DNA of 64,000 bases from Nitrospirota bacterium (GTDB taxonomy: Bacteria; Nitrospirota; UBA9217), in the NCBI GenBank assembly GCA_963836175.1, contig CAWIIS010000008.1:1862-65861 (forward strand), written 5' to 3'. This document shows, piece after piece, positions 43,813 to 60,899 of the stretch (position 1 is its first letter; every line of letters starts with the position of its first letter). A model generated the notes under the pieces. That model searched no databases. It was not told the DNA's origin and worked only from the letters and a program-made list of their open reading frames with translations. The translations under genes were made by a program, and so were the position numbers.

Positions 43813-43841
43813 TTGACAAACTATTTTGCTTGGCTTACTAT
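43813..43841 (+). promoter_or_regulatory. Candidate sigma-70 promoter of the nuo operon
   Basis: TTGACA - 17 nt - TACTAT, 56 nt upstream of the nuoA ATG. Confidence 0.5.
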
Positions 43842-43896: not shown

Positions 43897-44271
43897 ATGA
43901 CACCAAGTACCTATCTTCCGGAACACTTTTTGCCCGTAGCAATATTCCTGTTGCTCGGTATCGCTGTCGGAGTCGGCATGCTGGTTGCCGGATGGTTCAT
44001 TCGTCCGAGGAACCCCTATCCCGAAAAGCTGCTTACGTACGAATCCGGCATCACTCCCTTCATGGACGCCAATCAGAAGTTCTCTATCCGTTACTACATC
44101 ATCGCCATGCTGTTCCTTATCTTCGATATTGAAGCCGTATTCCTTTATCCCTGGGCCGTGTCGTACAACCAGATCGGCCTCTACGGCTTTGTGGAGATGG
44201 TGATCTTCATTATCATCCTGCTCGTCGGGTATTTCTACGCGTGGAAGAAAGGGGCGCTCGAATGGGAGTAG
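43897..44271 (+). CDS. nuoA: NADH-quinone oxidoreductase subunit A
   Basis: LTYESGITP and [15 protein letters not shown] signatures. 3 TM. Confidence 0.9.
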
Positions 44272-44741
44272 TCCAGAATCTTTTTGAGGACGGGTATATC
44301 ACAACCACCGTTGATGGTTTTCTCAATTACTGCCGTGCAAGCTCCATCTGGCCCATGACGTTCGGCCTTGCCTGCTGCGCCATTGAAATGATCCAGTATT
44401 ATTCCGCTCCCCAGCACGATTTCGACCGCTTCGGCACCGTACCCCGCCCGTCTCCCCGGCAGTCCGACCTGCTCCTGGTAGCCGGTACGCTTACGAAAAA
44501 GATGGCGCCCATCGTGCGCCGCGTCTATGATCAGATGCCCGAACCGCGGTATGTCATTGCCATGGGAAGTTGCGCCGGTTCGGGCGGCATTTTTAATACC
44601 TACAGCGTGGTGCAGGGTGTCGACAATATCATTCCCGTGGACGTCTACATACCGGGCTGCCCGCCGCGTCCTGAAGCGTTGATGAACGGCATCATGAAGC
44701 TGCAAGAAAAGATCAAGAAAGAGCACTATATCCGGAAGTAA
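44262..44741 (+). CDS. nuoB: NADH-quinone oxidoreductase subunit B
   Basis: N2 cluster ligands in [20 protein letters not shown] and IPGCPPRPE. Confidence 0.9.
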
Positions 44742-44815
44742 TACACGACATAATATCCTGATCGAAACCGAGCACCGCGGACCTTTTACGCGGTTGCGGC
44801 CCGTGACGAGGTTGT

Positions 44816-45286
44816 ATGGATCCCTTACAGATCGCTAAGATGGTAGAAGAAAAATTCGCCGGTCAGGTCCTGGGTACGACGACCTATGCAGGCCAGGTCG
44901 CGATCATGGTCAAAAAAGACATGATCAGGGACATCTGCCTGTACCTCAAAGATGAACCCTCCCTCAAGATGGACCACTTGGCCGACCTGACGGCCGTCGA
45001 TTACTCGACCTATCCCGGCGACACCGGCCCACGTTTCGAAGTCGTCTATAATCTTATCTCTACTGAATTCCGCCACCGCATCCGATTGAAGGTGCGCGTG
45101 CCGGAAGAGGACCCGCGGGTCGACACCGTCTCGTTGATCTGGCAAACAGCCAACTGGCACGAACGCGAGACCTTTGACCTCATGGGGATCAAGTTCGACG
45201 GCCATCCCGACCTTCGCCGGATCCTTTTGCCTGAGGACTGGGAAGGACATCCGCTCCGGAAGGAATATCCGCTGAAAGGCTATTAA
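44816..45286 (+). CDS. nuoC: NADH-quinone oxidoreductase subunit C
   Basis: ANWHERETFDLMGIKFDGHPDLRRILLPEDWEGHPLRKEYP. Confidence 0.9.
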   Translation: MDPLQIAKMVEEKFAGQVLGTTTYAGQVAIMVKKDMIRDICLYLKDEPSLKMDHLADLTAVDYSTYPGDTGPRFEVVYNLISTEFRHRIRLKVRVPEEDPRVDTVSLIWQTANWHERETFDLMGIKFDGHPDLRRILLPEDWEGHPLRKEYPLKGY

Positions 45287-45293
45287 AAGAACA

Positions 45294-45351
45294 GGGTCAA
45301 GGGTTCAAGTAGCAAGGGGCAAGGAATGCTGCCCCGGCCCCGGCCCCTGAC
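45294..45351. repeat. G-rich heptad-like tract followed by C-rich partner (nuoC-nuoD spacer)
   Basis: GTCAAGG GTTCAAG TAGCAAG GGGCAAG GAATG, then CCCCGGCCCCGGCCCCTGAC. The left arm ends in GGAATG, as in elements A1 and A2. Confidence 0.4.
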
Positions 45352-45373
45352 TCTCTCATGGTATAGGTGACTT

Positions 45374-46567
45374 ATGTCCGCTTCCTCGACGAAAGAAATA
45401 GTCCAGAAAGAGATTACTCTGAACATGGGGCCGCAGCATCCGGCCACCCACGGCGTGCTGCGCCTGGTGCTCGATCTGCAGGGCGAAACCGTGGTAGGCT
45501 GCGACGCGCGTCCCGGGTATCTTCACCGCGGGATCGAAAAATGGATGGAAAGCAGGACCTACCATCAGATCATCCCCATGACCGACCGGCTTGAGTATAT
45601 CACCTGCATGAACAACAACCTCGGCTACGTGGTTGCCGTCGAGAAACTTGCCAACATCGAGGTCCCGGAGCGGGCGCAGTTCATCAGAACGCTGATGGCA
45701 GAGCTGACGCGGCTTTCGGGCCATCTGGTGTGGCTCGGCACCCATGCCCTTGACATCGGCGCTATGACGGTCTGCATGTATACGCTGCGGGAACGGGAGC
45801 TTATCCTCGATCTTACCGAGATGGTGACAGGCGCGCGCCAGACCGTGAGCTATGTCCGCATCGGCGGCGTGCGCAACGATATACCGCGCGATTTCTTCGA
45901 CAAGTGCCGTGAATTCACCGAGATCTTCCCCAAACGGCTTGAAGAGTACGATACGCTGATCCGGCAAAACCGCATCTGGCTCCAGCGCACCGTGGGCATT
46001 GGCGTGTTCTCGGCCAAAGATGCGGTCAACTACGGTCTGACGGGCGGCACGCTCCGCGGTTCCGGCGTGAACTACGATCTGCGCAAGGTTGAACCCTATG
46101 CAGCCTACGATAAGGTTGATTTCGACGTGCCGCTCGGCAAGAACGGCGATGTCTACGACCGGTACCTCGTGCGCATCAATGAGATGCGCCAGAGCAACCG
46201 GATCATCAAACAGTGCCTCGATATGATGCCGCCCGGACCGGTGGTGACTCCGGACCCGCGGTACGCCATTCCCGAAAAAACGAACGTCATGAAAAGCATG
46301 GAATCGCTGGCCCACCAGTTCGTGCTCATGAGCAAGTGGGTCCCCATGCCCAAGGGCGAGGTCTATGTGGCGACCGAGGCGCCGAAGGGCGAACTCGGCT
46401 TCTATATAATAAGCGACGGCAGCGGCCGGCCCTACCGTATCAAGATCCGCGCCCCCTCGTATGTGCATGTGAGCGCCCTTTCGAAGATGGTGACCGGTCA
46501 TATGGTGGCCGATGTCATCTCATGCATAGGGACCATCGACATTGTGCTGGGTGAGGTTGACCGGTAA
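45374..46567 (+). CDS. nuoD: NADH-quinone oxidoreductase subunit D
   Basis: NMGPQHPATHGVLRLVL, HRGIEK, and C-terminal TIDIVLGEVDR. Confidence 0.92.
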   Translation: MSASSTKEIVQKEITLNMGPQHPATHGVLRLVLDLQGETVVGCDARPGYLHRGIEKWMESRTYHQIIPMTDRLEYITCMNNNLGYVVAVEKLANIEVPERAQFIRTLMAELTRLSGHLVWLGTHALDIGAMTVCMYTLRERELILDLTEMVTGARQTVSYVRIGGVRNDIPRDFFDKCREFTEIFPKRLEEYDTLIRQNRIWLQRTVGIGVFSAKDAVNYGLTGGTLRGSGVNYDLRKVEPYAAYDKVDFDVPLGKNGDVYDRYLVRINEMRQSNRIIKQCLDMMPPGPVVTPDPRYAIPEKTNVMKSMESLAHQFVLMSKWVPMPKGEVYVATEAPKGELGFYIISDGSGRPYRIKIRAPSYVHVSALSKMVTGHMVADVISCIGTIDIVLGEVDR

Positions 46568-46585
46568 GTCGCCGAGGTACGCAGT

Positions 46586-46942
46586 ATGAAACTGAGAGAG
46601 ATCATCGGCATTCTTCAAGCAGAGATCCTGGCCGGCGAGGACATCATCAACGGGATAGATGTGGACCGGTGCTACAGCGCAGATCTCATGAGCGACGTGC
46701 TTGGCCGCAGCCATGCGAACGGCATACTGATCACCGGGATAACGAACCCCCAGGCAATACGGACGGCTGACATTGCCGATATCAAGGCGGTTTGTGTCGT
46801 GCGCGGAAAACAGCCTGAAGCGGAAGCGGTCGCCCTGGCAAAGCAGAAGGATATGCCTCTTTTCATCACGAAAATGGGGATGTTCGAGGCGTGCGGCATC
46901 CTGTATGCGAACGGGCTGCGGGGAGTGGCCGAGCGGCACTAG
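46586..46942 (+). CDS. DRTGG-domain protein (first copy)
   Basis: 118 aa. DLMSDVL...ILITGITNPQAIRTADIADIKAVCVVRGKQP...AKQKDMPLF fits the DRTGG domain pattern. Starts 18 nt after nuoD. Confidence 0.65.
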   Translation: MKLREIIGILQAEILAGEDIINGIDVDRCYSADLMSDVLGRSHANGILITGITNPQAIRTADIADIKAVCVVRGKQPEAEAVALAKQKDMPLFITKMGMFEACGILYANGLRGVAERH

Positions 46943-46945
46943 GCG

Positions 46946-47896
46946 ATGACACACCAGCGTAAAGAGCAGCCGCCGGATCGAATGACCAAGACCCAGGAAA
47001 TGGTCTACGAGCTTACGGTTGGCGAGGTCATGCCGCCGACAATGGTCACCGTAGCTCCGGAACAGACCATGGCGGAACTCAGGGTTCTTTTGCGTGACAA
47101 CCGCCTGTCCGGCACACCGGTGGTCGAGAACGGGAAGCTTGTGGGGATGATCAGCATCGAAGATCTGATCAACGCCCTCACCGATAACGCGATCAGCGCC
47201 CCCATCCGGGAGAGGATGAAGACCAAGGTTGAATGTCTGTATGCCGATGAACTGCTTGTCCACTGCATAGCAAAGTTTTCCAAATTCGGGTACCGGCGGT
47301 ACCCCGTAATAAACCGGGACAATGAGCTGGTCGGCATCGTCACCAAGGGGAGCATTGTAGAAGGCCTCCTCAAGAAGCTCGAGGTCGAATACGAACAGGC
47401 CGAGTCAAAAGTGGCGGTGACGCGTCAGCGGCCGACGATGAAGAAGTTCTTTGAGGATGTATCTGCTGACGAGATCAGTTTTACTTTCAAGTACCATGTC
47501 GCCGGCCATTCCCTGAAGGACGCAGGCAAGGCTGCCAGCGAACTGAAGAATGCTCTTAAAAAACTGGGCGTCTGCCCGCCGCTCCTCAGAAGGATCGGGG
47601 TCGCCACGTACGAAGCAGAGATAAATCTTGCTTCATACACCAAGGGCGGTGTGATCCGTGCCCAGGTGGAGAAGTGGGGGGTTACGGTGGAGGCAATCGA
47701 CACCGGGCCCGGAATACCCGATGTCGAAAAAGCCTTGCAGCCCGGGTTTTCCACAGCGCCTGAATGGGTGCGGGAATTGGGATTCGGCGCCGGCATGGGG
47801 CTGGTGAACATGAAAAAATGCGCTGATGAAATGAACCTTATATCATCGGTGCCCGAGGGAACTCATCTGACCATGCAGTTTTATTATACGAGTTGA
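46946..47896 (+). CDS. CBS-pair domain fused to an RsbW/SpoIIAB-like GHKL ATPase (putative Ser/Thr protein kinase)
   Basis: Two CBS motifs (VGEVM...LSGTPVVENGKLVGMISIEDL; FGYRRYPVINRDNELVGIVTKGS). C-terminal N-box-like ATYEAEINL and G-boxes DTGPGIPD and GFGAGMGL. Confidence 0.65.
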   Translation: MTHQRKEQPPDRMTKTQEMVYELTVGEVMPPTMVTVAPEQTMAELRVLLRDNRLSGTPVVENGKLVGMISIEDLINALTDNAISAPIRERMKTKVECLYADELLVHCIAKFSKFGYRRYPVINRDNELVGIVTKGSIVEGLLKKLEVEYEQAESKVAVTRQRPTMKKFFEDVSADEISFTFKYHVAGHSLKDAGKAASELKNALKKLGVCPPLLRRIGVATYEAEINLASYTKGGVIRAQVEKWGVTVEAIDTGPGIPDVEKALQPGFSTAPEWVRELGFGAGMGLVNMKKCADEMNLISSVPEGTHLTMQFYYTS

Positions 47897-47906
47897 CCGG
47901 AGACCA

Positions 47907-48257
47907 ATGAAACTACGTGACCTGGCAGCGGAGTTCGGCTTGACCGTTAAAACCGGCGCAGGGCATCTTGATAACGAGGTGACCGGCGGGTACGTGAGCG
48001 ACCTCCTGTCGGACGTCCTGGCCCACGCCGAGGACGGGAACCTCTGGGTCACGCTCCATATTCACCATAATATTGTGGCCGTGGCAGCGCATACGGGGCT
48101 GTCGGGCATCGTTCTGATACAGGGCAGGGTCCCGGACCAGGATACGATCGCCAAGGCAGAGCAGGAAGGCATTCCGATCATGGTAAGCGACCTTTCGGCG
48201 TTCGAACTGGTTGGCAGATTGTATAAGGCGGGAATCCGTGGCGCTGAGGCGCTTTAA
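47907..48257 (+). CDS. DRTGG-domain protein (second copy)
   Basis: 116 aa. YVSDLLSDVL...IVLIQGRVPDQDTIAKAEQEGIPIM. Paralogous in layout to 46586-46942. Confidence 0.65.
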   Translation: MKLRDLAAEFGLTVKTGAGHLDNEVTGGYVSDLLSDVLAHAEDGNLWVTLHIHHNIVAVAAHTGLSGIVLIQGRVPDQDTIAKAEQEGIPIMVSDLSAFELVGRLYKAGIRGAEAL

Positions 48258-48984
48258 GGCCGATCTTCATGTGCACACCTGCCTCTCTCCCTGCTCCGGT
48301 CTTGACATGTCACCGCGGGAGGTCGTGAGCGCTGCCATCGAGAAGGGGATCGACCTGATCGGAGTGTGTGACCATAACTCGGCTGAAAACGTCATTGCCG
48401 TTAAAAAGGCCGGTCTTCGCAACGGACTGGCTGTTCTCGGCGGGATGGAAGTCACTTCTTCCGAGGAAGCGCACATCCTGGTGTTCTTTGATGATGACGA
48501 TGAACTCCTGGATTTCCAGGAGTTCATTTACCAACACCTTGCCGGGAAAAATGATGGTCACTCCTTTGGACTGCAGGTGATCGCTGACGACGAGGATGGA
48601 GTAACCGGCTTTTGTGAGCGGCTTCTGATCGGAGCTACATCGCTGCCCGCAGAAGCGATCGTTGCAAAAGCCCGGGCGGCAAAAGGGGAGAGCCTCGTAA
48701 TAGCCGCTCATGTTGACCGGGAATCCTTCAGCATTATCGGACAGCTTGGATTCATCCCTGATACGCTGGTTCTGGATGCGGTGGAGGTATCGGCAAACTC
48801 GAACATTGTCGAGGCCCGAAATCGATTCCCTGATTGCGCAAAATATCCAATGATCACGAGTTCGGATGCTCACAGCCCTGCAGATATGGGGAAGCGGTTT
48901 ACCTCCTTTCTGCTGGAAGAGGGCACGGTGGCTGAGATAAAAAAAGCACTGGCCGGCAGAGACGGCAGGAAGGCTGAGTGCTGA
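48238..48984 (+). CDS. PHP-domain (polymerase/histidinol phosphatase-like) metal-dependent phosphoesterase
   Basis: ADLHVHTCLSPCS, GVCDHNS, GMEVTS..EAHILVFF and SSDAHS metal-ligand motifs. Start uncertain (GTG 48238 or TTG 48211). Overlaps the previous gene. Confidence 0.65.
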   Translation: MALRRFKADLHVHTCLSPCSGLDMSPREVVSAAIEKGIDLIGVCDHNSAENVIAVKKAGLRNGLAVLGGMEVTSSEEAHILVFFDDDDELLDFQEFIYQHLAGKNDGHSFGLQVIADDEDGVTGFCERLLIGATSLPAEAIVAKARAAKGESLVIAAHVDRESFSIIGQLGFIPDTLVLDAVEVSANSNIVEARNRFPDCAKYPMITSSDAHSPADMGKRFTSFLLEEGTVAEIKKALAGRDGRKAEC

Positions 48985-48988
48985 AGCA

Positions 48989-49519
48989 GTGGAAGAGATT
49001 TCGCTCCATATTCTCGACATTGCTGAAAACTCGCTGCGGGCAGGCGCAAAAAACGTGGAGATCCTGGTTGTCAGGGACCGGTCGCAGGACCTGCTGAAAA
49101 TAGACGTCCGGGATGACGGAAGAGGGATGGATGCCGAAACGCTGGCACAGGTCCGGAATCCTTTCTTTACAACGAAACAGAAGAAAACCGGGCTCGGCAT
49201 TCCATTGCTGGCGCAGGCCGCGGAGCAGGCAGGCGGCGGCCTGACGATCGACTCCGCGCCGGACAGCGGTACCCGGGTAACGGTGACGTTCCAGTGGAGC
49301 GCCATTGACCGGCCCAAGATGGGCGCCTTGGCGGATACGCTGCTGACGATCATTGCGGGCCATCCTGAGCTGGATATGGTCTACGAAGAATGGGTTGACG
49401 GGGAGGTCTTCCGGCTTGATACCCGGGAGATCAAGAACGAGCTGGACGACGTGCCGATTAACAGCCCGGCGGTATTTGAAGCGCTCAGGGGCATGCTGCA
49501 GGACGGCATGCGGATCTGA
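48989..49519 (+). CDS. Stand-alone GHKL (HATPase_c) ATP-binding protein
   Basis: N-box HILDIAENSLRAGA. G1 DDGRGMD. FFTTK. G2 KTGLGIPL. No HisKA/H-box. GTG start. Confidence 0.6.
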   Translation: MEEISLHILDIAENSLRAGAKNVEILVVRDRSQDLLKIDVRDDGRGMDAETLAQVRNPFFTTKQKKTGLGIPLLAQAAEQAGGGLTIDSAPDSGTRVTVTFQWSAIDRPKMGALADTLLTIIAGHPELDMVYEEWVDGEVFRLDTREIKNELDDVPINSPAVFEALRGMLQDGMRI

Positions 49520-49553
49520 AAGAATAAATTCATCAGGTGAGTCGAAGAGGTTA

Positions 49554-50063
49554 ATGATGAGTACAGAAGCTGCAGAACATACTGCCACAAACAATGAGGT
49601 CATCTTGCCCGATATGTATCGGAAGATTGACGTGATCATTGAAAAGTACAAGGACAAGCCCGGTTCGCTGATCCCCGTACTGCAGCAGGCGCAGGAGGTT
49701 TGCGGGTATCTCCCGCATATCGTGCAGCGTTACATTGCAAAAGGCATGAATATGTCGCCGAGCGTGGTTTTCGGTGTGGCCACGTTCTACTCTTACTTTA
49801 CGCTCGTTCCGCGCGGCAAACACGTGATCCGGGTCTGCCTCGGGACCGCCTGCTACGTGAAACGGAGCGAGGAGATCATCGAAAAGATCAAGGCTGAGCT
49901 GGACCTCGAGGTCGGCGAGATCACGCGGGACAAGAAGTATTCCCTTGAGGCTGTGCGGTGCCTCGGCGCATGCGGACTCGCACCGGTTGTGGTCATCGGG
50001 CAGGACACGTACGGCGATGTGGCGGCCACGAAAGTAATGGATATTATAAAGAAATACGAATAA
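49554..50063 (+). CDS. nuoE: NADH dehydrogenase subunit E (NuoE/HydC/HndA-type [2Fe-2S])
   Basis: SLIPVLQQAQEVCGYL, CLGTACYV and CLGACGLAPVV cluster ligands. Confidence 0.88.
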   Translation: MMSTEAAEHTATNNEVILPDMYRKIDVIIEKYKDKPGSLIPVLQQAQEVCGYLPHIVQRYIAKGMNMSPSVVFGVATFYSYFTLVPRGKHVIRVCLGTACYVKRSEEIIEKIKAELDLEVGEITRDKKYSLEAVRCLGACGLAPVVVIGQDTYGDVAATKVMDIIKKYE

Positions 50064-50098
50064 TTCGATTTCGGATCGCGGATTTCGGATTGCGGATT
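50063..50098. repeat. Solo arm of the GGATT-heptad element (copy A3)
   Basis: AATTCGATTTCGGATCGCGGATTTCGGATTGCGGATT lies directly before the SD (AAAGGTG) of the next gene. No inverted partner is present. Confidence 0.6.
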
Positions 50099-50110
50099 AA
50101 AGGTGAAAAA

Positions 50111-50488
50111 ATGGCAAAACTGACGATCGCTGACTTAAAAAAGATCAAGGAAGATTACCATCAAGGGCTTCGCGAGGGCGGATTCAGGGTGAGGATCACG
50201 GTGCACATGGGGACCTGCGGGATCGCTGCCGGCGCCCGGGGCATCATGAATACCATCATGGAAGAGCTGGCCAAGTCCAATCTGAAGGACGTGGCGATCA
50301 CGACCTCGGGATGCGCCGGCTTGTGCAGTCAGGAACCGATGACGACCATCGAGACCACCGGCGAAGCTCCGGTAAAATATACCGCCCTTACGGAAGAGAA
50401 GATGCGCAAGATATTTGCCGAGCATGTCATAGCGGGCCGGCCGGTCAAGGAATACGCCCTTGTTGCCGGGCACGAAACGACCTATTAG
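50111..50488 (+). CDS. Thioredoxin-like [2Fe-2S] ferredoxin (HndB/HydD-like)
   Basis: VHMGTCGIAAGA ... TSGCAGLCSQEP Cys pairs. 125 aa. Not part of the canonical 14-gene nuo set. Confidence 0.75.
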   Translation: MAKLTIADLKKIKEDYHQGLREGGFRVRITVHMGTCGIAAGARGIMNTIMEELAKSNLKDVAITTSGCAGLCSQEPMTTIETTGEAPVKYTALTEEKMRKIFAEHVIAGRPVKEYALVAGHETTY

Positions 50489-50562
50489 ACCGTTAATAAA
50501 ACGCTCAACAGCCAGGAGCGAACACGTAATTAAGTACAAAACTATCTGAAATTACAATTCAT

Positions 50563-52371
50563 GTGCGGGGTAATATCGTGGAAACGACTGCATACCGTTC
50601 GAACATAATGATCTGCGCAGGCACCGGCTGTGTTGCCAACGGATCGCTCAAGGTCAAGGACGCGCTCGAGACCGAGCTCATCAAGCGCAACCTCCAGAAC
50701 GAGGTCAAGATCGTTCTGACCGGGTGCAACGGGTTCTGCGCCAAGGGCCCGGTGATGGTGGTCTACCCCGAGGACATCTTCTATCAGCTGGTGAAGCCCG
50801 AAGATGTGCCGCATCTCGTTGAGGAGCATTTCATCAAGGGCCGGCCGGTCCAGAAATTCCTCTATACGCCGCCGGCGGACAAGAACACGATCCCCGTGAT
50901 GAACGACATCCCGTTCTTCAAGCACCAGGTTCTCCGGGCGCTCAGGAACCGGAGCCTCATCGATGCCGAGAAGATCGAGGAATACATCGCCCGCGACGGT
51001 TACATGGCTGCGGCCAAGGCGCTCACTGAGATGACTCCCGAGCAGATCGTCGTCGAAATGAAGAAGTCCGGCCTGCGCGGCAGGGGCGGCGCTGGCTTTT
51101 TGACAGGTCTCAAATGGGAACTCTGCGCCCGTGTTTCCGGTGATATCAAGTACATTTTGTGCAACGGCGACGAGGGTGACCCGGGCGCGTTCATGGACAG
51201 GAGCGTCATGGAGGCGGACCCTCACTCCGTGCTCGAAGGCATGATCATTGCCGCCAAGGCGATCAACGCCCATTACGGGTACATCTATGTAAGGGCCGAG
51301 TATCCCTTGGCAGTGCAACGGCTCCAGCTTGCCATCGAATCGGCTAAGGAACACGGCCTCCTGGGCAAGGACATCCTCGGCACCGGGTTTGATCTTGATC
51401 TTGAGATCTACCAGGGCGCCGGTGCTTTTGTCTGCGGCGAAGAAACTGCCCTCATGGCCTCCATCGAAGGCAAGCGCGGCATGCCGCGTGCCAAGCCGCC
51501 GTTCCCGGCGGTCAAGGGTTTGTGGCAGCGCCCATCGGTCTTGAACAATGTCGAGACCTTTGCCAACATTCCGCCGATCATTCTGCACGGAGCGGACTGG
51601 TACGCGAGCCTGGGTACCGAGAAGAGCAAAGGCACCAAGGTGTTCGCGCTCTCCGGGGCATTGAACAATATCGGGCTTGTCGAAGTGCCCATGGGCACGC
51701 CGCTCAAGACCATCATTTACGATATTGGCGGCGGTATCAAGAACAACCGCAAATTCAAGGCAGTGCAGATGGGTGGTCCGTCGGGAGGCTGCATACCTGG
51801 TTCGCTCATCGACACGCCCGTGGACTTCGAGAATATCAACAAAACCGGTGCGATCATGGGCTCGGGCGGCATGGTGGTGATGGACGAGACCACCTGCATG
51901 CCGGCCATGGCCAAGTTCTTCCTTGAGTTCACTGAGGACGAGTCCTGTGGAAAGTGCGTTCCCTGCAGGATCGGGAACAAAACGCTGCTCACTATTCTGC
52001 AGCGCATTACGAACGGCGAGGGACGCGAAGGCGACATCGAGCTGCTGCTCGCTCTTTCCCAGCAGATCAAGGACACATCGCTCTGCGGCTTGGGCCAGAC
52101 CTCACCCAACCCGGTGCTCACCACGATCAGGTATTTCCGCGACGAGTATGAAGCGCATATCAAGGAGCATCGCTGCCCGGCGAGGGTCTGTACGCCCCTC
52201 GTCAAGTTCGTGGTGGACAAGGACAAGTGCAAGAAGTGCGGCCAGTGTTTCAAAGCCTGCCCGACCGGCGCGCTCAAATGGGAAAAAGGCCAGGTTGCAT
52301 ACATTGACCCTGAAAAGTGCACCAAGTGCAAGTCCTGCATCAAGGCGTGCCGTTTCTGGTCGATCGATTAG
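50563..52371 (+). CDS. nuoF: NADH dehydrogenase subunit F, extended HydB/HndC-type (N-terminal Trx-like [2Fe-2S], FMN/NADH site, N3, C-terminal 2x[4Fe-4S])
   Basis: CAGTGC...GCNGFCAKGP; GLRGRGGAGF; CNGDEGDPGAF; ESCGKCVPCR; CKKCGQCFKACP and CTKCKSCIKAC. 602 aa versus about 430-450 for classical NuoF. Confidence 0.88.
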   Translation: MRGNIVETTAYRSNIMICAGTGCVANGSLKVKDALETELIKRNLQNEVKIVLTGCNGFCAKGPVMVVYPEDIFYQLVKPEDVPHLVEEHFIKGRPVQKFLYTPPADKNTIPVMNDIPFFKHQVLRALRNRSLIDAEKIEEYIARDGYMAAAKALTEMTPEQIVVEMKKSGLRGRGGAGFLTGLKWELCARVSGDIKYILCNGDEGDPGAFMDRSVMEADPHSVLEGMIIAAKAINAHYGYIYVRAEYPLAVQRLQLAIESAKEHGLLGKDILGTGFDLDLEIYQGAGAFVCGEETALMASIEGKRGMPRAKPPFPAVKGLWQRPSVLNNVETFANIPPIILHGADWYASLGTEKSKGTKVFALSGALNNIGLVEVPMGTPLKTIIYDIGGGIKNNRKFKAVQMGGPSGGCIPGSLIDTPVDFENINKTGAIMGSGGMVVMDETTCMPAMAKFFLEFTEDESCGKCVPCRIGNKTLLTILQRITNGEGREGDIELLLALSQQIKDTSLCGLGQTSPNPVLTTIRYFRDEYEAHIKEHRCPARVCTPLVKFVVDKDKCKKCGQCFKACPTGALKWEKGQVAYIDPEKCTKCKSCIKACRFWSID

Positions 52372-52428
52372 TAGCGGACAAATTTACCGCGGAAAACAGC
52401 GGTTGCATACAAAGGTAGAAGAAAACCT

Positions 52429-54603
52429 ATGCAGAAAATAACGGTAACGGTTGACGGAAAAAAAGTAGAAGTGCCCACGGGATCGACGATCCTGGAGGCT
52501 GCTAATGCCGCCGGGTCGCGGGTACCCACCCTGTGCCATGACAACAAGCTCCATCCCTTCGGCGCCTGCCGGATCTGCATCGTGGAGGTGGAGGGGACGC
52601 CTCGCCGGTTCACGCCGTCGTGCACGACCCCGGCTGGCGACAATATGGTGGTCCGTACCACGTCGCCGGAGCTCATCACTGCGCGCAAGATGGTGCTCGA
52701 ACTGTTATTGATCAAACATCCCCTCGACTGCCCGGTCTGCGACAAGGCCGGAGCGTGCCAGCTCCAGGACCTCACGCATGAGTACGGGCTCGGCCCGAGT
52801 CGGTTCGATGCTGAGAAGGGCTACCTCCCACCCGATCTGGAGAGTGCGATCATCGAACGCAATATCAGTCGCTGCATCCTCTGCGGCAAGTGCGTCAGGA
52901 TCTGCGACGAGCAGAACGGCGTTGGAGAGTGGGCCTTTACCCGCCGCGGCACCAAGGCGCGGATCAGCACCGACTTTGACCGGCCGCTGGACTGCGAGTT
53001 CTGCGGCGAATGCGTCGAGATCTGCCCGGTGGGGGCGCTCACGACGCGCCAGTTCAAGTACAAGGCCCGCTCCTGGAACCTGGAAGAGACCAAATCGGTC
53101 TGCAACTACTGCGGCTGCGGCTGCACCACGACGCTGGAGACGCGCGATAGCAGGATCATGCGGGTGAGCCCGGGCAGGGACAATTATCTCTGTGCCAAGG
53201 GTCGCTTCGGGTGGGACGCGGTCCGTCACAAAGACCGGCTCACTACGCCGAAGATGCGCGTGGCTAATGAGCTCGTTGACTGCACTTGGGATGAGGCGCT
53301 GGCAGTGGTGGCCACAAACCTCAACGTGATCAAGGGCAAGAGCGGGGCTGACAGCATCGGCGGCCTCGGGTCCGTACGAACCACAAATGAGGACCACTAT
53401 GTGTTCCAGAAGTTCATGCGTACGATCGTGGGCACGAACAATGTGGATCTGCTGGCGAGGCTCAAGGCGCCGAAAGGGCTCGATACGGCGTTCTTCAGCG
53501 GCGAACTCGGCCAGATGGGCGCTAACGATGTTATCCTGGTGCTCGACAAGGAAGTCGGCGATATCAACCCGCTCACCGGCATTGAGATCGTCCGCGCTGT
53601 CAATCGAAAAGGCCGCACGCTGGTCCTGGTGAACGACGGATTTAATAAATTCAACAAGCTTGCTTCGGTCGTGATCCCCCAAAGCACCGAGGCGGCGTTG
53701 GGCGACCTGGTCAAGGCATTGTCGGCCGGACAGGGAAGCAGCGAGGCACAGCATGCTGCAACGGTCCTGAAAAGTGCCGGAAGCGTGGCGGTCATCGTAC
53801 CGTCGAAGCTTACGGACGCGGATTTCAGCCGGATCAAGGAGCTTGCCGGTCTACTGAAGAATGTTACCTATTATCCCATCGTACGGCGCAGCAACTTCCA
53901 GGGTGCGCTCGACATGGGAGTGCTCCCGGATTATTATCCCGGATACCGGAAGGTCGGTGCTGATACGACGGCCTCGCTTGCACGTTCCTGGAACGCAGTC
54001 CTGCCCGGGACGACCGGCAAAAATGCTGTGGAGATGGTCGACGCGATGGCCTCCGGCAAACTGCATGCCCTCTATATCATGGGCGACGATCCGATCGGAA
54101 GCGACCCGGGCCTCAAACCGGTGCTTGCGAAGCTCGATTTCCTCGTGGTGCAGGACATTTTTATGACCGAGACGGCGCAGATGGCCGATGTGGTGCTGCC
54201 GGCGTCAAGTTATGTGGAAAAAAGCGGAACGTTCACGAACCTTGAACGGCGCCTCCAGCAGATCAACCGCGGTGAAGAGCCCTACGGGGAATCGCGCCCT
54301 GACTGGGAGATCCTCGCGGAGGTTGCGAAGAAGATGGGCGGGTCCCTGACCTATGGCTCCGTGCGGGACATTATTGCGGAGATCCGGTCTATGGTGCCGT
54401 TGTATGCAGGCCTCACGGTTGGCTCATGCTGGCCGCGTGAAAGCTCGCCGCTTGCCGGAACGGACGTTGACCTGTCGCTGGCATCCAATAACATCATGAA
54501 AAAAGAAGTGATCACGGCTGAGAAACAGCTGTTCTCGTCCGGAATGACGATCACGCGGTCACATGAGATCGGGACCATCAAACATATTAAGATCGAAGTG
54601 TAG
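52429..54603 (+). CDS. nuoG: NADH dehydrogenase subunit G (75-kDa, molybdopterin-oxidoreductase-like)
   Basis: [2Fe-2S] CHDNKLHPFGACRICIVEV. HPLDCPVCDKAGACQLQD. CILCGKCVRIC. CEFCGECVEICPVGA. CNYCGCGC. Confidence 0.85.
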   Translation: MQKITVTVDGKKVEVPTGSTILEAANAAGSRVPTLCHDNKLHPFGACRICIVEVEGTPRRFTPSCTTPAGDNMVVRTTSPELITARKMVLELLLIKHPLDCPVCDKAGACQLQDLTHEYGLGPSRFDAEKGYLPPDLESAIIERNISRCILCGKCVRICDEQNGVGEWAFTRRGTKARISTDFDRPLDCEFCGECVEICPVGALTTRQFKYKARSWNLEETKSVCNYCGCGCTTTLETRDSRIMRVSPGRDNYLCAKGRFGWDAVRHKDRLTTPKMRVANELVDCTWDEALAVVATNLNVIKGKSGADSIGGLGSVRTTNEDHYVFQKFMRTIVGTNNVDLLARLKAPKGLDTAFFSGELGQMGANDVILVLDKEVGDINPLTGIEIVRAVNRKGRTLVLVNDGFNKFNKLASVVIPQSTEAALGDLVKALSAGQGSSEAQHAATVLKSAGSVAVIVPSKLTDADFSRIKELAGLLKNVTYYPIVRRSNFQGALDMGVLPDYYPGYRKVGADTTASLARSWNAVLPGTTGKNAVEMVDAMASGKLHALYIMGDDPIGSDPGLKPVLAKLDFLVVQDIFMTETAQMADVVLPASSYVEKSGTFTNLERRLQQINRGEEPYGESRPDWEILAEVAKKMGGSLTYGSVRDIIAEIRSMVPLYAGLTVGSCWPRESSPLAGTDVDLSLASNNIMKKEVITAEKQLFSSGMTITRSHEIGTIKHIKIEV

Positions 54604-54612
54604 GAGCAGAAC

Positions 54613-55701
54613 ATGCCTGATCTGAACCTGGTGCTCAACATCCTCTATACGCTTGTCATTCCCATCGCGGTGCTGCTGGCCTTCATCCTGGCCAATGCCA
54701 TGTATCTGCAGCTTATGGAACGCAAGGTGCTTGCGCACATGCAGGGAAGGCTTGGCCCTATGCGGACCGGCTGGCACGGGATCCTGCAGCCGATCGCGGA
54801 TGCGGTCAAGTTCATCATGAAAGAGGACATCATTCCGGCCAAGGCAGACAAGTGGGTTTTCAGCCTCGCACCGATCCTGATGCTCGCCATGGCATTCGGC
54901 GCTTTTGTGGTCATTCCCTTTGGACCGCCGACGAGCTTTTTCGGACTTTTGTCCCATGAGGTCCCGCTCTGGGTTTCGAATCTGAATGTGGGGGTTCTCT
55001 TTATCGTCGCGTTCGCCAGTATCGGCACCTACGGCGTCATCATGGCCGGATGGGCGTCGAACAATAAATATTCCCTCATGGGAGGGTTCCGGTCAGCGGC
55101 CCAGATGATAAGCTACGAGATTCCCATGGCTTTTTCGATACTCACCGTGGTGCTCCTGGCAGGGTCGCTGAACCTGAACGATATTGTGAATGCCCAAAGC
55201 AAGCAATGGTTCATTATCGCGCTGCCCGTGGGCCCGGTGGCATTTTTCCTCTATCTGGTTTCGGCAATTGCGGAAACGAACCGTGTTCCTTTTGACCTGC
55301 CCGAGGCCGAGAGCGAACTGGTGGCAGGGTACTTCACCGAGTACAGCGGCATTCGCTTCGGCCTCTTCTTCATGGCGGAGTACATGAACATGATGGTGGC
55401 ATCGCTTCTGGCAAGCATCATGTTCCTCGGCGGCTGGCTGCCGGTGCAGATACTTCCCAATACCGCCTTTGGCCACCTCGCCTCAATAACGTTTCTCAAT
55501 AAGATATTTGCGGCGCTGCCGCCGACGCTCTGGCTGCTGGCAAAGCTTTACTTCTTCATCTTCTTCTACATGTGGATCCGGGCAACGCTTCCCCGGTACC
55601 GTTATGACCAGCTCATGAAGATCTCCTGGAAGATCTTTCTTCCCTTGTCGCTCGGCACGCTGCTCGTGGCGGCAGGTATGAAGCAGCTGGGCTGGCTGTA
55701 G
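54613..55701 (+). CDS. nuoH: NADH-quinone oxidoreductase subunit H
   Basis: MERKVLAHMQGRLGP and AETNRVPFDLPEAESELVAGY. Confidence 0.92.
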   Translation: MPDLNLVLNILYTLVIPIAVLLAFILANAMYLQLMERKVLAHMQGRLGPMRTGWHGILQPIADAVKFIMKEDIIPAKADKWVFSLAPILMLAMAFGAFVVIPFGPPTSFFGLLSHEVPLWVSNLNVGVLFIVAFASIGTYGVIMAGWASNNKYSLMGGFRSAAQMISYEIPMAFSILTVVLLAGSLNLNDIVNAQSKQWFIIALPVGPVAFFLYLVSAIAETNRVPFDLPEAESELVAGYFTEYSGIRFGLFFMAEYMNMMVASLLASIMFLGGWLPVQILPNTAFGHLASITFLNKIFAALPPTLWLLAKLYFFIFFYMWIRATLPRYRYDQLMKISWKIFLPLSLGTLLVAAGMKQLGWL

Positions 55702-55753
55702 CAGACGGAGATGCGTTCGGAGCAAGGAGTTCTGAGTTAGGAGCAAATGACCG

Positions 55754-56242
55754 ATGAATAAACTTAAAAAGCTGCTTAAAACGATTTTCATGATCGAGAT
55801 CGCGCAGGGCATGGCCCTGACGCTCAAGACCATGCTCACCCGTCAAAAACATATGATACCCTATGCGAAGACGCGGCAATACCCGGCCTTCAAGCGCAAA
55901 CCGATCGCCGGGTCGCGCGGGCTCCATGCCATGCGACGCGATGAAAAGGGCGCGGCAGCATGCATCGGTTGCGGCCTCTGCGAGGCGGTCTGTCCTTCCC
56001 ATGCCATTACGGTGGTAACGTCCGAGGGGCCGGACCATGAAAAAGTGGTGAACTCCTATGAGCTTGACCTGCTCCGGTGCGTGTTCTGCGGTTTTTGCAT
56101 CGATGCATGCCCTGTTTCGGCGATCCTGATGACCCCCGAATTCGAGCTTGCCTGCTACGACAGGAAAGATGCGTTCTACACCAGGGACCGTCTTGTCGAT
56201 GTGGGCGACCACTACCTGGGCGGAAAGGCGGTAAAGAAGTAA
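55754..56242 (+). CDS. nuoI: NADH-quinone oxidoreductase subunit I
   Basis: CIGCGLCEAVCP and CVFCGFCIDACP. Confidence 0.9.
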   Translation: MNKLKKLLKTIFMIEIAQGMALTLKTMLTRQKHMIPYAKTRQYPAFKRKPIAGSRGLHAMRRDEKGAAACIGCGLCEAVCPSHAITVVTSEGPDHEKVVNSYELDLLRCVFCGFCIDACPVSAILMTPEFELACYDRKDAFYTRDRLVDVGDHYLGGKAVKK

Positions 56243-56751
56243 TGGTGCATAAACTTATCTTCCTGTATTTTGCCGCAGTGATCCTTGTATCGGCGGTCCT
56301 CACGGTAACCCGGAAGAACCCCATCCACAGTGTGATGTACATGCTCCTGCTCTTCTTCCACATTGCGGGCGTTTTCGTGCTGCTGAACGCGGAGTTTCTG
56401 GCTGCAGTGCAGCTTATCGTGTATGCCGGGGCCATCCTGATCCTGTACCTCTTCGTGGCGATGCTTCTGAGCGTGGACCGCGAGGTAATCGCGCTGCGGG
56501 CGAACCGTTTCTGGCCCTGGCTCACCGGATTTGGCGTGCTGATTGCGGGAGAGATCGGATTGCTCGTTGCAGAGGGTGCGTTTCCGGCGGATGCTGGCCA
56601 GCCGATGCGTGCGGCCTCGAGTACCGGGATTGGCGCCCTCGGCAGTGAGCTCTATACCAACTACCTGGTGCCGTTCGAGGTTGCGTCCATCATTCTGCTG
56701 GTCGGACTCGTGGGCGCTGTGATGCTGGCGAAGAAGAAAACGAACGAATAA
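56242..56751 (+). CDS. nuoJ: NADH-quinone oxidoreductase subunit J
   Basis: ATG overlaps the nuoI stop (TAATG). [40 protein letters not shown]. Confidence 0.85.
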
Positions 56752-56759
56752 GTAATTAC

Positions 56760-56835
56760 ATTGCGGATTTCGGATTGCGGATTGCGGATTCTAATCGAAG
56801 CTCAATCCACATCCCGCAGTCTTCAACTCCGCAAT
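56760..56835. repeat. GGATT-heptad element, copy A4, with degenerate partner arm (nuoJ-nuoK spacer)
   Basis: ATTGCGG ATTTCGG ATTGCGG ATTGCGG ATT, then CAATCCACATCCCGCAGTCTTCAACTCCGCAAT. Confidence 0.6.
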
Positions 56836-56852
56836 GGAAACCGGAGGTTTCC

Positions 56853-57155
56853 ATGATCCCTTTGTCCTGGTATATCCTGCTGAGCGCCGGGTTGTTCACC
56901 ATTGGTGTTGTCGGCGTGCTGAGCCGCCGCAATGTGTTCATCGTGCTGATGTCGCTCGAGCTCATGCTGAACGCGGCGAACATCAACCTCGTGGCGTTCT
57001 CGCACTATCTGCAGTCGCTCACCGGTCAGATTTTCGCGATCTTTGTGATCACCGTAGCCGCTGCCGAGGCGGCGGTGGCGCTGGCGATCATCATCCTGCT
57101 GGCCCGCAACCGCGGGAGCATCCATGTGGATGATTTTAACATCATGAAGGGATAA
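56853..57155 (+). CDS. nuoK: NADH-quinone oxidoreductase subunit K
   Basis: [24 protein letters not shown] and [12 protein letters not shown]. Confidence 0.9.
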
Positions 57156-57159
57156 AATC

Positions 57160-57286
57160 GGGAAATCCCAAAGCCCAAGCGCCAAATTACAAATAAATTC
57201 CAAGCGCCCAGAGGCAAGTGTTCTCTGATCCGGGTTTGAAATTTGGATTTTATTTGAGATTCGGAAATTGAAGTTTGGAATTTACC
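57160..57286. repeat. AT-rich heptad-type imperfect hairpin (nuoK-nuoL spacer)
   Basis: CCAAATTACAAATAAATTCCAAG on the left. ATTTGGATTTTATTTGAGATTCGGAAATTGAAGTTTGGAATTT on the right. Shares strings with the 28025-28090 tract. Confidence 0.5.
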
Positions 57287-57300
57287 TCGAAGAGGTGATT

Positions 57301-59232: not shown

Positions 59233-59315
59233 CAGGTGCAGCCCATCATCATTGAAACAGATGCCTCGGTGGTTTGCGTTGACATCAGTAACCATTTATC
59301 AAAGGAGTCAGATCC

Positions 59316-60855: not shown

Positions 60856-60899
60856 ATCGTCAGGAGTTTTATCCCAGAGGAATCTGTGAGGAGATATCG

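Follow-up and report, generated by a model that had tools for sequence, protein, structure and literature searches.

Anaerobic energy conservation depends centrally on HydABC/Bfu electron-bifurcating enzymes and on complex I, and to our knowledge the post-translational control of bacterial bifurcating enzymes and complex I is not understood so far. Nuo-Bfu was predicted earlier for Nitrospirae by Schut et al. 2022, with BfuB clade 39 comprising Planctomycetes and Nitrospirae, and is predicted to carry out electron confurcation from NADH and reduced ferredoxin to menaquinone (PMC9304861). As published, Nuo-Bfu counts 14 subunits, encoded by a nuoA-N operon with Bfu-type E, F, and G genes mid-operon, and its NuoF pairs a 2Fe-2S domain at the N-terminus with a C-terminal 2x[4Fe-4S] domain; BfuB is characterised by the 51-kDa FMN domain, the SLBB domain, the NuoF 4Fe-4S region, and a ferredoxin-type 4Fe-4S domain (PMC9304861). 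The text of that paper and the supplement searched make no mention of kinase, phosphatase, DRTGG, or PHP genes; a figure may show unlabelled 'regulatory' genes. Clostridium thermocellum offers an example of the bifurcating HydABC(D) [FeFe]-hydrogenase operons of Firmicutes: its five-gene cluster Cthe_0338-0342 contains a 'histidine kinase', Cthe_0339, which was noted, set aside, and omitted from the table of hydrogenase genes (PMC3990059).

The window (i.e., the whole 64,000-nt stretch of DNA analysed here) is from the same phylum as the predicted Nuo-Bfu and shares its operon layout and NuoF domains, and it adds to the published 14 subunits five non-structural genes, referred to here as the cassette (c1 to c5), and an extra 2Fe-2S gene. 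Like the HydABC(D) operons, it has a cassette-type gene within the cluster. The cassette also resembles partner-switching modules (SpoIIAB-SpoIIAA-SpoIIE and RsbW-RsbV-RsbU) in having a small HATPase_c_2 GHKL Ser/Thr-kinase domain, small single-domain alpha/beta partners, and, within the cluster, a gene for an opposing phosphoesterase. Where those modules use STAS, PP2C, and a sigma factor, however, the cassette has DRTGG proteins, a PHP protein, and no sigma factor nearby, and its kinase carries a CBS pair. The CBS-DRTGG-CBS insert of CBS-pyrophosphatases (PDB 3L2B, 3L31), described as binding AMP, ADP, ATP, and Ap4A, shares the two domain types of the cassette working together; there they lie in one polypeptide with the pyrophosphatase, whereas in the cassette they are split between different polypeptides, and their coupling is to a kinase domain. 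Similarly, HPr kinase/phosphorylase (HprK/P) has a DRTGG-resembling N-terminal domain attached to a Ser kinase, although its catalytic domain is a P-loop kinase rather than the GHKL type of the cassette.

The nuoD-nuoE gap and its host operon

Coordinates in Table 1 are positions within the window, and all features listed are on the + strand. The ORF list places five same-strand ORFs between nuoD and nuoE (ATG at 49554), exactly as the initial annotation had claimed, and the gaps it reported from nuoD to nuoE (18, 3, and 10 nt, an overlap, then 4 and 34 nt) were reproduced. The overlap is that of c4 with c3, with c4 starting at TTG 48211 or alternatively at GTG 48238. We also found, in line with its reading, no promoter-like or terminator-like site on the + strand of 46500-49600; the best promoter-like site is 5' of nuoA. 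The GC and GC3 of the cassette are like those of the adjoining nuo genes.

Table 1. Features of the nuo operon and the cassette within the window
Feature	Position	Strand	Evidence or remark
Best sigma-70-like promoter match	43813..43841	+	TTGACA-17-TACTAT, upstream of nuoA; consensus match only
nuoA, nuoB, nuoC, nuoD (complex I Q-module and membrane-anchor genes)	43897..46567	+	ORFs; Pfam (nuoD at 45374-46567, Complex1_49kDa 396 bits); orthologue Pfam families for nuoA-D from locus L001
c1: single-domain DRTGG protein, 118 aa	46586..46942	+	Sub-cut-off Pfam; AF2 model and Foldseek
c2: CBS pair and SpoIIAB/RsbW-type GHKL domain, 316 aa	46946..47896	+	Pfam; invariant columns; SpoIIAB structures
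c3: second DRTGG protein, 116 aa, c1 paralogue	47907..48257	+	Sub-cut-off Pfam; hhalign
c4: PHP metal-dependent phosphoesterase with PHP_C	48211..48984	+	Pfam; conserved metal site
c5: histidine-kinase-type CA domain and small alpha/beta C-terminal domain, 176 aa	48989..49519	+	Pfam; AF2; Foldseek
nuoE / BfuC, HydC-like 2Fe-2S subunit	49554..50063	+	Pfam 2Fe-2S_thioredx 167 bits; best NCBIfam match HoxE
Extra thioredoxin-like 2Fe-2S protein, HydD-like, 125 aa	50111..50488	+	Absent from canonical nuo operons
nuoF / BfuB, HydB-type	50563..52371	+	Pfam domain set
nuoG / BfuA	52429..54603	+	Profile matches
nuoH, I, J, K, L and one 1012-aa nuoM-nuoN ORF (membrane arm)	54613..62354	+	ORFs

The cassette had been described as inserted in a complex I operon. 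Its location stands, but the host is not canonical: NuoE, the 2Fe-2S protein, and NuoF belong to the HydC/HydD/HydB (Bfu) type. By Pfam, NuoF runs from an N-terminal 2Fe-2S domain (2Fe-2S_thioredx, 32 bits) through the FMN domain and the NuoF 4Fe-4S region to a C-terminal 2x[4Fe-4S] ferredoxin domain (Fer4 x2 at residues 550-596). With PF01512 at 161 bits, PF10589 at 116 bits, and a weak SLBB match, this is the BfuB domain set. Genes for BfuC (NuoE-like) and BfuA (NuoG-like, 2Fe-2S and 4Fe-4S) lie mid-cluster within nuoA-N. Since NuoE, the extra 2Fe-2S protein, and a HydB-type NuoF are all present, our data indicate that the host operon is, by predicted domain content, Nuo-Bfu and no canonical complex I hit by a foreign cassette.

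We found the order nuoABCD-c1..c5-nuoE-2Fe2S-nuoF-G-H-I in every spanning contig, across 28 related Nitrospirota species-representative loci and one 2.35 Mb contig. The dN/dS values, 0.04-0.27 for the cassette genes versus 0.007-0.17 for the nuo genes, indicate that all five are real genes under purifying selection. Given that the arrangement recurs in 28 related genomes under such selection, it is not a misassembly.

Domains of the five proteins

The CBS, GHKL, and PHP calls of the initial annotation lie above their Pfam cut-offs; its DRTGG calls fall below theirs but are supported by fold. Indeed, c1 and c3 score 20.5 and 21.7 bits against Pfam DRTGG (PF07085; cut-off 25.2), while their relatives have precomputed PF07085 matches and the NCBI name 'DRTGG domain-containing protein'. 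The best Foldseek match of the c1 AlphaFold model (pLDDT 94.5) is the DRTGG structure 2IOJ (TM 0.78, rmsd 2.3 Å, 119 columns), the DRTGG domain of CBS-pyrophosphatase (3L31/3L2B) matches with a TM of 0.70, and for both c1 and c3 the next-best match by structure is the N-terminal domain of HprK/P. The two proteins are paralogues by hhalign (probability 99.9). The predicted structure confirms the DRTGG fold for c1, to which c3 is homologous. Family-invariant residues are D33, S36, D37, T50, G51, R73, and K75 in c1 and G28, Y29, D32, S35, W47, T49, H53, and N55 in c3. In an alignment, the invariant Ser of the c3 D-L-L-S motif falls on c1 Ser36, a residue that the c1 model places at the N-terminal end of a helix.

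Two tandem CBS (PF00571) stretches form a CBS pair in c2 (84.9 bits), followed by a HATPase_c_2 match (36.4 bits). The ATP-binding motifs (E223/E225/N227, D252-G254-G256, and G279-F280-G281-x-G283-x-G285) are intact, with their columns invariant in 40 homologues, and the kinase domain matches the SpoIIAB structures 1TIL, 1L0O, and 1TH8 with an E of about 2.5e-5. The claim of RsbW/SpoIIAB-like GHKL proteins stands for c2, which has a HATPase_c_2-type GHKL Ser/Thr kinase domain, and fails for c5, a histidine-kinase-type CA domain without DHp. In the proteins most closely related to the c2 kinase domain, that domain is joined either to a c1-like DRTGG domain (locus L114) or to Fer4, Fe-hydrogenase-like, and FeS domains, and one relative is flanked by c1-like, c3-like, and PHP genes (L115). 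These interchangeable sensors on a c2-type kinase (CBS, DRTGG, or Fe-S/hydrogenase-like) favour a signal-sensing role, and that the CBS pair may sense energy charge is a reasonable inference. The idea that both DRTGG proteins may be phospho-substrates is complicated by the natural fusions of a c1-like DRTGG to the kinase domain, which make c1 look more like an adaptor or sensor partner of the kinase.

PHP (PF02811) is matched by c4 at 37.5 bits (cut-off 26.4), with PHP_C in addition. Its metal site is complete (H20, H22, D54, H55, E80, H88, H167, D219, and H221), and these residues are kept in at least 43 of 44 homologues. Its nearest relatives are TrpH/Cv1693-type enzymes, RNase AM, EndoQ, and the PHP domains of TrlF/Ppl; it resembles solved structures weakly (E 4e-4 to 0.06). 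Because these relatives act on nucleotides or nucleic acids and not on phosphoproteins, it is an assumption that c4 would serve as the phosphatase of a switch.

The CA domain of c5 spans residues 1-105 (HATPase_c, 59.9 bits), its N, G1, F, and G2 boxes are invariant, and its AF2 model (pLDDT 87.9) matches the CA domains of WalK, ZraS, and CckA as well as MutL-N by Foldseek. We found neither a DHp/HisKA match by Pfam nor a helical hairpin in the model, and the cassette has no receiver domain: of a two-component histidine kinase, c5 has the CA domain, with neither a DHp domain bearing a phospho-accepting His nor a cognate response regulator in the cassette. In the window, the His of the family SHIDR motif of c5 is replaced by Ala105, which counts against the proposed switch.

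Neighbours of the cassette in distant loci

A distant sample comprised 76 metagenome loci with 38-53% identity to c2, of which those with enough flank were counted. In more than 90% of them c1 is 5' (53/58) and c3 is 3' (53/57) of the c2 homologue, while about 82% have c4 (37/45) and c5 (30/36) downstream. On either side, 72-81% encode NuoE (26/36), NuoF (22/27), and the 2Fe-2S protein (20/27), the commonest order being nuoE-c5-2Fe2S-nuoF. Partner enzymes vary, including HydA, an FdhA-type protein, HydB::GltD, BfuA::HdrA, NiFe/HoxH, and Hdr/Mvh-like proteins. Cassette relatives thus adjoin NuoE/NuoF-like genes of [FeFe]- and [NiFe]-hydrogenases and of formate dehydrogenase-type, Nfn/GltD-fused, and HdrA-fused enzymes. 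As read from these neighbourhoods, BfuBC is the common denominator, and the cassette is found here because the NuoE, extra 2Fe-2S protein, and NuoF of this complex I are of the BfuBC type. Overall, gene order across these loci shows the cassette to be a conserved companion, or accessory module, of the BfuBC (HydBC-type) NADH/ferredoxin input module.

At least six enzyme types show the association, which spans several phyla (among them Nitrospirota, Planctomycetota, and Chloroflexota), with homologues in at least 4,381 c5-like and at least 7,995 c1-like protein clusters. A second lineage has the order c1-c2-nuoABCD-c3-c5 (L079 and L087), which suggests that the nuo link was assembled in two different arrangements; the PHP gene is apparently absent from L079. 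Some c2 homologues (L034 and L036) have no Bfu genes nearby, which, like the missing PHP gene, speaks against the proposed control role.

Cthe_0339 presumably sits between the NuoE-like and 2Fe-2S genes of its hydrogenase cluster, whereas in the window c5 comes before nuoE, with the quinone module of complex I as catalytic partner. A hydrogenase link, noted in the initial annotation, is borne out both by Cthe_0339 (PMC3990059) and by cassette genes beside NuoE/NuoF-like subunits in hydrogenase loci. In the searchable literature the cassette is nowhere described, one member having been passed over as a 'histidine kinase' (PMC3990059).

Proposed role and alternatives

Our data suggest that the cassette is probably a control system of NADH/ferredoxin-input modules in anaerobic redox enzymes. 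Taken as a whole, the best explanation would be an ATP-dependent switch that senses a signal and acts on the electron-input module after translation, and we give this reading an even chance of being correct. The CBS pair of c2 would read an adenine-nucleotide signal and gate the SpoIIAB-like kinase domain, with c1 as its DRTGG adaptor. The likely phospho-acceptor and output protein would be c3, for which the invariant Ser of D-L-L-S is the candidate residue, and the PHP enzyme c4 would reverse or reset the signal. A second ATP-binding component, c5, whose gene adjoins nuoE/hydC in most loci, may dock on or act on BfuC or the 2Fe-2S protein. Together these steps would open or close the entry of electrons from NADH (and ferredoxin) into the part of the complex that reduces quinone and pumps protons. 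Partner switching offers a loose analogy, since there is no STAS or PP2C partner: DRTGG proteins take the place of STAS domains, none of which occur in the cassette or around it in four annotated loci (L001, L110, L112, and L113), and the cassette esterase is PHP by Pfam rather than PP2C.

It is unlikely, but worth weighing, that the five proteins are instead assembly or maturation factors that aid FMN/Fe-S insertion or the docking of BfuBC onto its partner enzyme and do not regulate the finished enzyme. The cassette is embedded in structural genes and adjoins BfuB/BfuC whatever the catalytic partner, and the whole-length c5 model also resembles the ATPases MutL-N and Topo VI-B, GHKL ATPases including Hsp90 and MutL. 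Relatives of c1 keep the cysteines C70 and C103; these are not invariant across the wider family, however. Against this reading, c2 has a kinase domain of the SpoIIAB/RsbW signalling type, and the sensor swapping of that domain is typical of signalling proteins and not of chaperones.

A nucleotide-messenger circuit would account for the nature of the c4 relatives and for the pairing of CBS and DRTGG domains seen in the CBS-pyrophosphatase insert that binds adenylates and Ap4A. The CBS/DRTGG ligand would be a small adenine nucleotide (pAp, Ap4A, or an oligonucleotide, cyclic or linear) which the PHP enzyme hydrolyses; the GHKL proteins would bind or make it, with no protein being phosphorylated. 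We consider this distinctly improbable given the intact kinase-type motifs of c2 and the weak similarity of the PHP protein to solved structures; furthermore, we know of no GHKL domain that acts as a nucleotide cyclase or synthetase.

Nor is a transcriptional partner switch easily reconciled with the locus, even though c2 matches the anti-sigma F model as well as SpoIIAB structures and JGI names its relatives 'anti-sigma regulatory factor' and those of c1 'predicted transcriptional regulator'. Here c2 would be an anti-sigma kinase, the DRTGG proteins its antagonists, and the PHP protein a phosphatase, with a sigma factor encoded elsewhere controlling redox-enzyme genes. In the annotated loci L001, L110, L112, and L113, neither a sigma-factor gene nor a DNA-binding domain lies in the cassette or in the surrounding 10 kb or so, a STAS protein is absent, and the cassette sits within structural operons rather than next to a regulator, all of which leave this reading very doubtful. 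Finally, a misassembly, mobile element, or anti-phage island in the nuo operon, suggested by weak, domain-level matches of the PHP and GHKL domains to the defence proteins Ppl and MzaB, is effectively refuted by the identical arrangement in independently assembled genomes (long contigs included), by composition and purifying selection, by a Bfu link kept across several phyla, and by a negative search for a full defence-system match.

Returning to the post-translational switch, we tentatively propose, at low confidence, that the cassette could represent a widespread unrecognised signalling system that gates bifurcating/confurcating BfuBC by adenylate or redox signals and, in this organism, NADH/ferredoxin input to a proton-pumping complex I. 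If true, bacterial complex I and flavin-based bifurcating enzymes would thereby gain their first described system dedicated to phospho-regulation; we know of no earlier one. Long ignored under labels such as 'hypothetical', 'histidine kinase', or 'ATP-binding', the cassette genes become a concrete, testable candidate control system of Bfu-type enzymes, and some of them are present in tractable biofuel organisms (e.g., Clostridium thermocellum). Our data suggest that Nuo-Bfu complex I may be a regulated entry point for low-potential electrons.

The cassette and its host operon

We found five plus-strand ORFs filling the interval between nuoD and nuoE, with the positions and spacings that the initial annotation had given (18, 3 and 10 nt, an overlap, then 4 and 34 nt, read from nuoD to nuoE). 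The absence of promoter-like and terminator-like signals that it had reported agrees with our consensus scan, which found no such site on the plus strand within the cassette and placed the region's best promoter-like site upstream of nuoA. GC and GC3 of c1-c5 match those of the flanking nuo genes.

Features of the cassette, its host operon and the upstream region in the window
Feature	Position	Strand	Remark
(CGGATTK)n inverted pair	40104-40137/40176-40202	+/-	flanks sensor-kinase gene
PAS-HisKA-HATPase sensor-kinase gene	40252-41382	+
(CGGATTK)n inverted pair	41384-41417/41463-41496	+/-	flanks sensor-kinase gene
NtrC-type sigma-54 activator gene	41510-42961	+
Best promoter-like site	43813-43841		consensus scan
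nuo operon	43897-62354		nuoA to end of single nuoM-nuoN ORF
nuoD	45374-46567	+	5' neighbour of cassette
c1 (DRTGG)	46586-46942	+	ORF listing
c2 (CBS-CBS-GHKL)	46946-47896	+	ORF listing
c3 (DRTGG)	47907-48257	+	ORF listing
c4 (PHP)	48211-48984	+	ORF listing; overlaps c3
c5 (GHKL)	48989-49519	+	ORF listing
nuoE	49554-50063	+	3' neighbour of cassette
(CGGATTK)n single arm	50072-50098		nuoE/2Fe-2S junction
Extra 2Fe-2S gene	50111-50488	+	between nuoE and nuoF
(CGGATTK)n single arm	56764-56790		nuoJ/nuoK junction
nuoM-nuoN ORF	59316-62354	+	1012 aa

The cassette had been described as inserted in a complex I operon; the location stands, but the input genes are not the canonical ones, NuoE, the 2Fe-2S protein and NuoF being of the HydC, HydD and HydB type. 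NuoF (602 aa) has a thioredoxin-like 2Fe-2S domain at its N-terminus and a 2x[4Fe-4S] ferredoxin domain at its C-terminus, NuoE matches HoxE best among curated families, and the extra gene encodes a thioredoxin-like 2Fe-2S protein of 125 aa. As judged from the predicted products, this set of domains is the one known from HydB, HydD and HydC in bifurcating hydrogenases. In the HydD-like family the motif MGTCGIAAGAR is invariant while conservation of the cysteines reaches just 60-90%; three Cys occur in the window protein, and cluster binding may not be universal in this family. According to Schut et al. 2022 (PMC9304861), in which the HydABC-type family of input subunits was renamed BfuABC, Nuo-Bfu is a complex I with BfuABC in place of NuoEFG that has been described from genomes only and is predicted to confurcate NADH and reduced ferredoxin to menaquinone, and BfuB clade 39 comprises Planctomycetes and Nitrospirae. 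Its text and available supplement make no mention of a kinase, phosphatase, DRTGG or PHP gene, and the term Nuo-Bfu occurs in no other paper of the literature searched. By its predicted proteins, the window operon is a member of this predicted type. Geobacter-type Nuo-Bfu operons (BfuB clade 38) are, as far as is known, contiguous.

In the same operon, nuoM and nuoN form one ORF with two Proton_antipo_M stretches, which is either a genuine NuoM-NuoN fusion or the product of a lost stop codon. The sensor-kinase and NtrC-type genes lie directly upstream of the operon, with a minus-strand methyltransferase gene standing in between; the pair is also kept in a related locus (L001), and a similar sigma-54 activator lies approximately 8 kb upstream of the cassette in a Planctomycetota locus (L113). 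Since the upstream regulator is of the NtrC type, we scanned for sigma-54 promoters. The sequence before nuoA has no -24/-12 site, which led us to reject such a promoter for the nuo operon, and matches across the window were fewer than expected by chance. A tandem heptamer, (CGGATTK)n, with 22 matches against 3.5 expected, occurs in intergenic DNA both as inverted pairs and as single arms within the operon, and stands at syntenic positions common only to the window and its nearest relative (L001/L004).

Conservation and enzyme partners

The proteins closest to those of the cassette belong to uncultured Nitrospirota, and a contig of 2.35 Mb has the same neighbourhood, upstream two-component genes included. 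A genome scan queried with a single c2 protein extended no further than close relatives within Nitrospirota; it yielded 28 related loci, all in species-representative genomes of that phylum, and every contig that spans the region has the order nuoABCD-c1-c2-c3-c4-c5-nuoE-2Fe2S-nuoF-nuoG-nuoH-nuoI. Pairwise dN/dS was 0.04-0.27 for c1-c5 versus 0.007-0.17 for nuo genes (dS being saturated for more distant pairs), which places the cassette within or just above the nuo range; c2 is as constrained as nuoD, while c1 and c5 are the least constrained of the five. Since the arrangement is fixed in independent contigs and the genes have these dN/dS values, misassembly, a recent insertion and non-coding ORFs are excluded.

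We next turn to more distant relatives. With c2 as query, 1.84 billion representative proteins yielded 69 clusters at E<=1e-30; only about 50 clusters hold full-length CBS-CBS-GHKL proteins, and many kinase-domain-only relatives lie beyond them. An alignment of 40 full-length c2 homologues led to 80 metagenome loci, 76 of them distant (38-53% identity). The distant loci are metagenomic, mostly without taxonomy and collected through c2 homologues, and their context comes from the alignment-based metagenome scan and look-ups of individual proteins. Among those with enough flank to be counted, c1 precedes c2 in 53 of 58 and c3 follows it in 53 of 57, c4 is present in 37 of 45 and c5 in 30 of 36, and the loci also contain a NuoE-like gene (26/36), a NuoF-like gene (22/27) and a small 2Fe-2S gene (20/27). 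The commonest order is c1-c2-c3-c4-nuoE-c5-2Fe2S-nuoF, which we take to be the layout of Firmicute hydABCD operons. The initial annotation was right to associate small genes of this kind with the operons of multimeric hydrogenases. In PMC3990059, the C. thermocellum cluster Cthe_0338-0342 includes Cthe_0339, a 'histidine kinase' absent from the hydrogenase gene table.

The enzyme partners are diverse. They include the [FeFe]-hydrogenase HydA (L084, identified by Pfam, the H-cluster motif regular expression being too strict to return any HydA), a formate-dehydrogenase-type subunit (L091), HydB fused to a GltD/NfnB-like domain (L039, L048, L112 and L113), a Hox-like [NiFe]-hydrogenase (L110) and, in Planctomycetota (L035, L045, L112 and L113), BfuA fused to an HdrA-like domain together with HdrB/C, MvhD and [NiFe]-hydrogenase, where the cassette again lies among structural genes. 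In another lineage (L079 and L087), c1-c2 stand ahead of nuoA while c3 and c5 follow nuoD, and this split order means that the nuo association was built in two different arrangements. The region in these two loci (3879-9469 in L079) reads c1-c2-nuoA-nuoB-nuoC-nuoD-c3, with c5 following after approximately 627 nt that hold no PHP gene. The sole constant partner of the cassette is the BfuBC module. Our data show that the five genes form a conserved unit under selection, found together with BfuBC-type genes regardless of which enzyme is the partner, and the gene context makes it highly probable that they constitute a conserved accessory module of BfuBC-type enzymes.

Many distant loci have two consecutive NuoE-NuoF pairs after the cassette (L110, 12814-18900; L086, L091, L094-L096, L099 and L101), one of HydB type with a C-terminal ferredoxin domain and the other shorter, with a NuoG-like protein next; in L110, a [NiFe]-hydrogenase is also found downstream of the pairs.

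Protein anatomy and exchangeable sensors

Pfam assigned a CBS pair and HATPase_c_2 to c2, PHP and PHP_C to c4, and HATPase_c to c5, which bears out the CBS, GHKL and PHP calls made earlier; the DRTGG call for c1 and c3 falls just under the curated cut-off, with the fold supported by the c1 model and by profiles. NCBIfam has a dedicated model for none of c1-c5. The c1 and c3 families, clear paralogues (hhalign probability 99.9), match the DRTGG structures 2IOJ and 3L2B/3L31 and the HprK/P N-terminal domain weakly but consistently. For c1, a confident AlphaFold model (pLDDT 94.5) finds its closest structural match in 2IOJ, the structure of Pfam's DRTGG family (TM 0.78, rmsd 2.3 A), with the DRTGG domain of CBS-pyrophosphatase second. 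A D-x-x-S motif (D33/S36 in c1, D32/S35 in c3) and a Thr are invariant in both proteins. The Ser of this motif is placed by the c1 model at a helix N-terminus, presumably the structural position of the phospho-Ser of SpoIIAA and of HPr.

The GHKL domain of c2 matches SpoIIAB in sequence, and its N box (E223, E225, N227), G1 box (D252-G254-G256) and G2 box (G279-F280-G281-x-G283-x-G285) are kept in all 40 homologues. The full PHP metal site is retained in c4, which is most closely related to esterases acting on nucleotides or nucleic acids (TrpH/Cv1693-type, RNase AM, EndoQ and the PHP domains of TrlF and Ppl). At the level of sequence, kinase and esterase retain their catalytic motifs. Invariant histidine-kinase-type N, G1, F and G2 boxes are present in c5, and its confident model (pLDDT 87.9) has a Bergerat fold, which superposes on the catalytic domains of WalK, ZraS and CckA, followed by a small alpha/beta domain, with no DHp domain. 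After the ATP-binding domain comes a family motif, S-H-I-D-R-x-P-L-G-D, reminiscent of a histidine-kinase H box. Since its His is Ala in the window (residue 105), and Ala or Asn in some close relatives, phosphorylation of this His cannot be a general feature of the family. The c5 and c1 families comprise at least 4,381 and at least 7,995 protein clusters, respectively, under generic names ('ATP-binding protein', 'anti-sigma regulatory factor', 'DRTGG domain-containing protein', 'predicted transcriptional regulator').

The closest kinase-domain relatives of c2 bear other N- or C-terminal modules. In one type (P0245, in L114) the kinase is directly fused with a DRTGG domain resembling c1, and its gene adjoins c3-like and Fe-S/hydrogenase-like genes; in the other (P0202, in L115) the kinase is fused to Fer4, Fe-hydrogenase-like and FeS domains, and c1-like, c3-like and PHP genes flank it. 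Such relatives indicate a constant frame (DRTGG, kinase, DRTGG, PHP) with an exchangeable sensor: judged by domain content, the kinase accepts alternative sensor domains and can be covalently linked to a DRTGG domain of the c1 type. The CBS pair is replaced in both variant cassettes (L115, 452-3334; L114, 552-2745), which suggests redox- or H2-sensing versions of the same system.

Candidate functions and significance

Our functional statements draw on sequence, predicted structure and gene context. We propose that the cassette may be a signal-sensing, ATP-dependent switch on the electron-input module, and the chance that it acts as a regulatory switch on BfuBC seems to us about even. The CBS pair of c2 would read an adenine nucleotide, possibly jointly with c1; a precedent is the CBS-DRTGG-CBS insert of CBS-pyrophosphatases, for which responses to AMP, ADP, ATP and Ap4A are reported. 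The specific phosphorylation scheme is more tentative: c1 would be an adaptor of the kinase, c3 the likelier phospho-acceptor and output, and c4 would reset the state, while c5, encoded next to nuoE/hydC, may contact BfuC or the 2Fe-2S protein.

Genes embedded among structural genes, and a c5 with whole-length likeness to MutL, might instead encode assembly or maturation factors; this reading leaves sensor swapping unexplained, and we regard it as unlikely. A nucleotide-messenger circuit, to which the relatives of the PHP protein and the CBS/DRTGG precedent point, is slightly less probable still as a sole account and may combine with the proposed switch. The similarity of c2 to SpoIIAB recalls a transcriptional partner switch, and partner-switching modules are alike in logic, but the cassette has no STAS protein or PP2C phosphatase, and neither a sigma factor nor a DNA-binding domain was found in it or within about 10 kb in the annotated loci L001, L110, L112 and L113, which makes this explanation improbable. 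Since STAS, PP2C and the sigma factor are three of the four features that define partner switching, the cassette is better placed outside that family, as a kinase/esterase signalling module. The hfsABCD operon of Thermoanaerobacterium was rejected as a characterised equivalent, since it combines a PAS-[FeFe]-hydrogenase sensor with a homologue of serine phosphatases. An artefact, a mobile element or a defence system is ruled out by conservation, composition and the PADLOC result, in which the matches behind a defence island are at domain level only.

Because Nuo-Bfu was already predicted, a Nitrospirota complex I with HydBC-type input genes is not new. No paper discusses the cassette in the literature searched on its domains with hydrogenases, bifurcating enzymes and Nuo-Bfu, and three things appear undescribed among the 8 million papers covered: the cassette as a unit, its tight, phylum-spanning link to BfuBC of many enzyme types including complex I, and the modular sensor-kinase design. 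The instance in the window is one of thousands. More generally, a dedicated and so far unstudied candidate signalling module goes with bifurcating enzymes and with one form of complex I, a proposition that is open to direct testing and would be of consequence for anaerobic bioenergetics.
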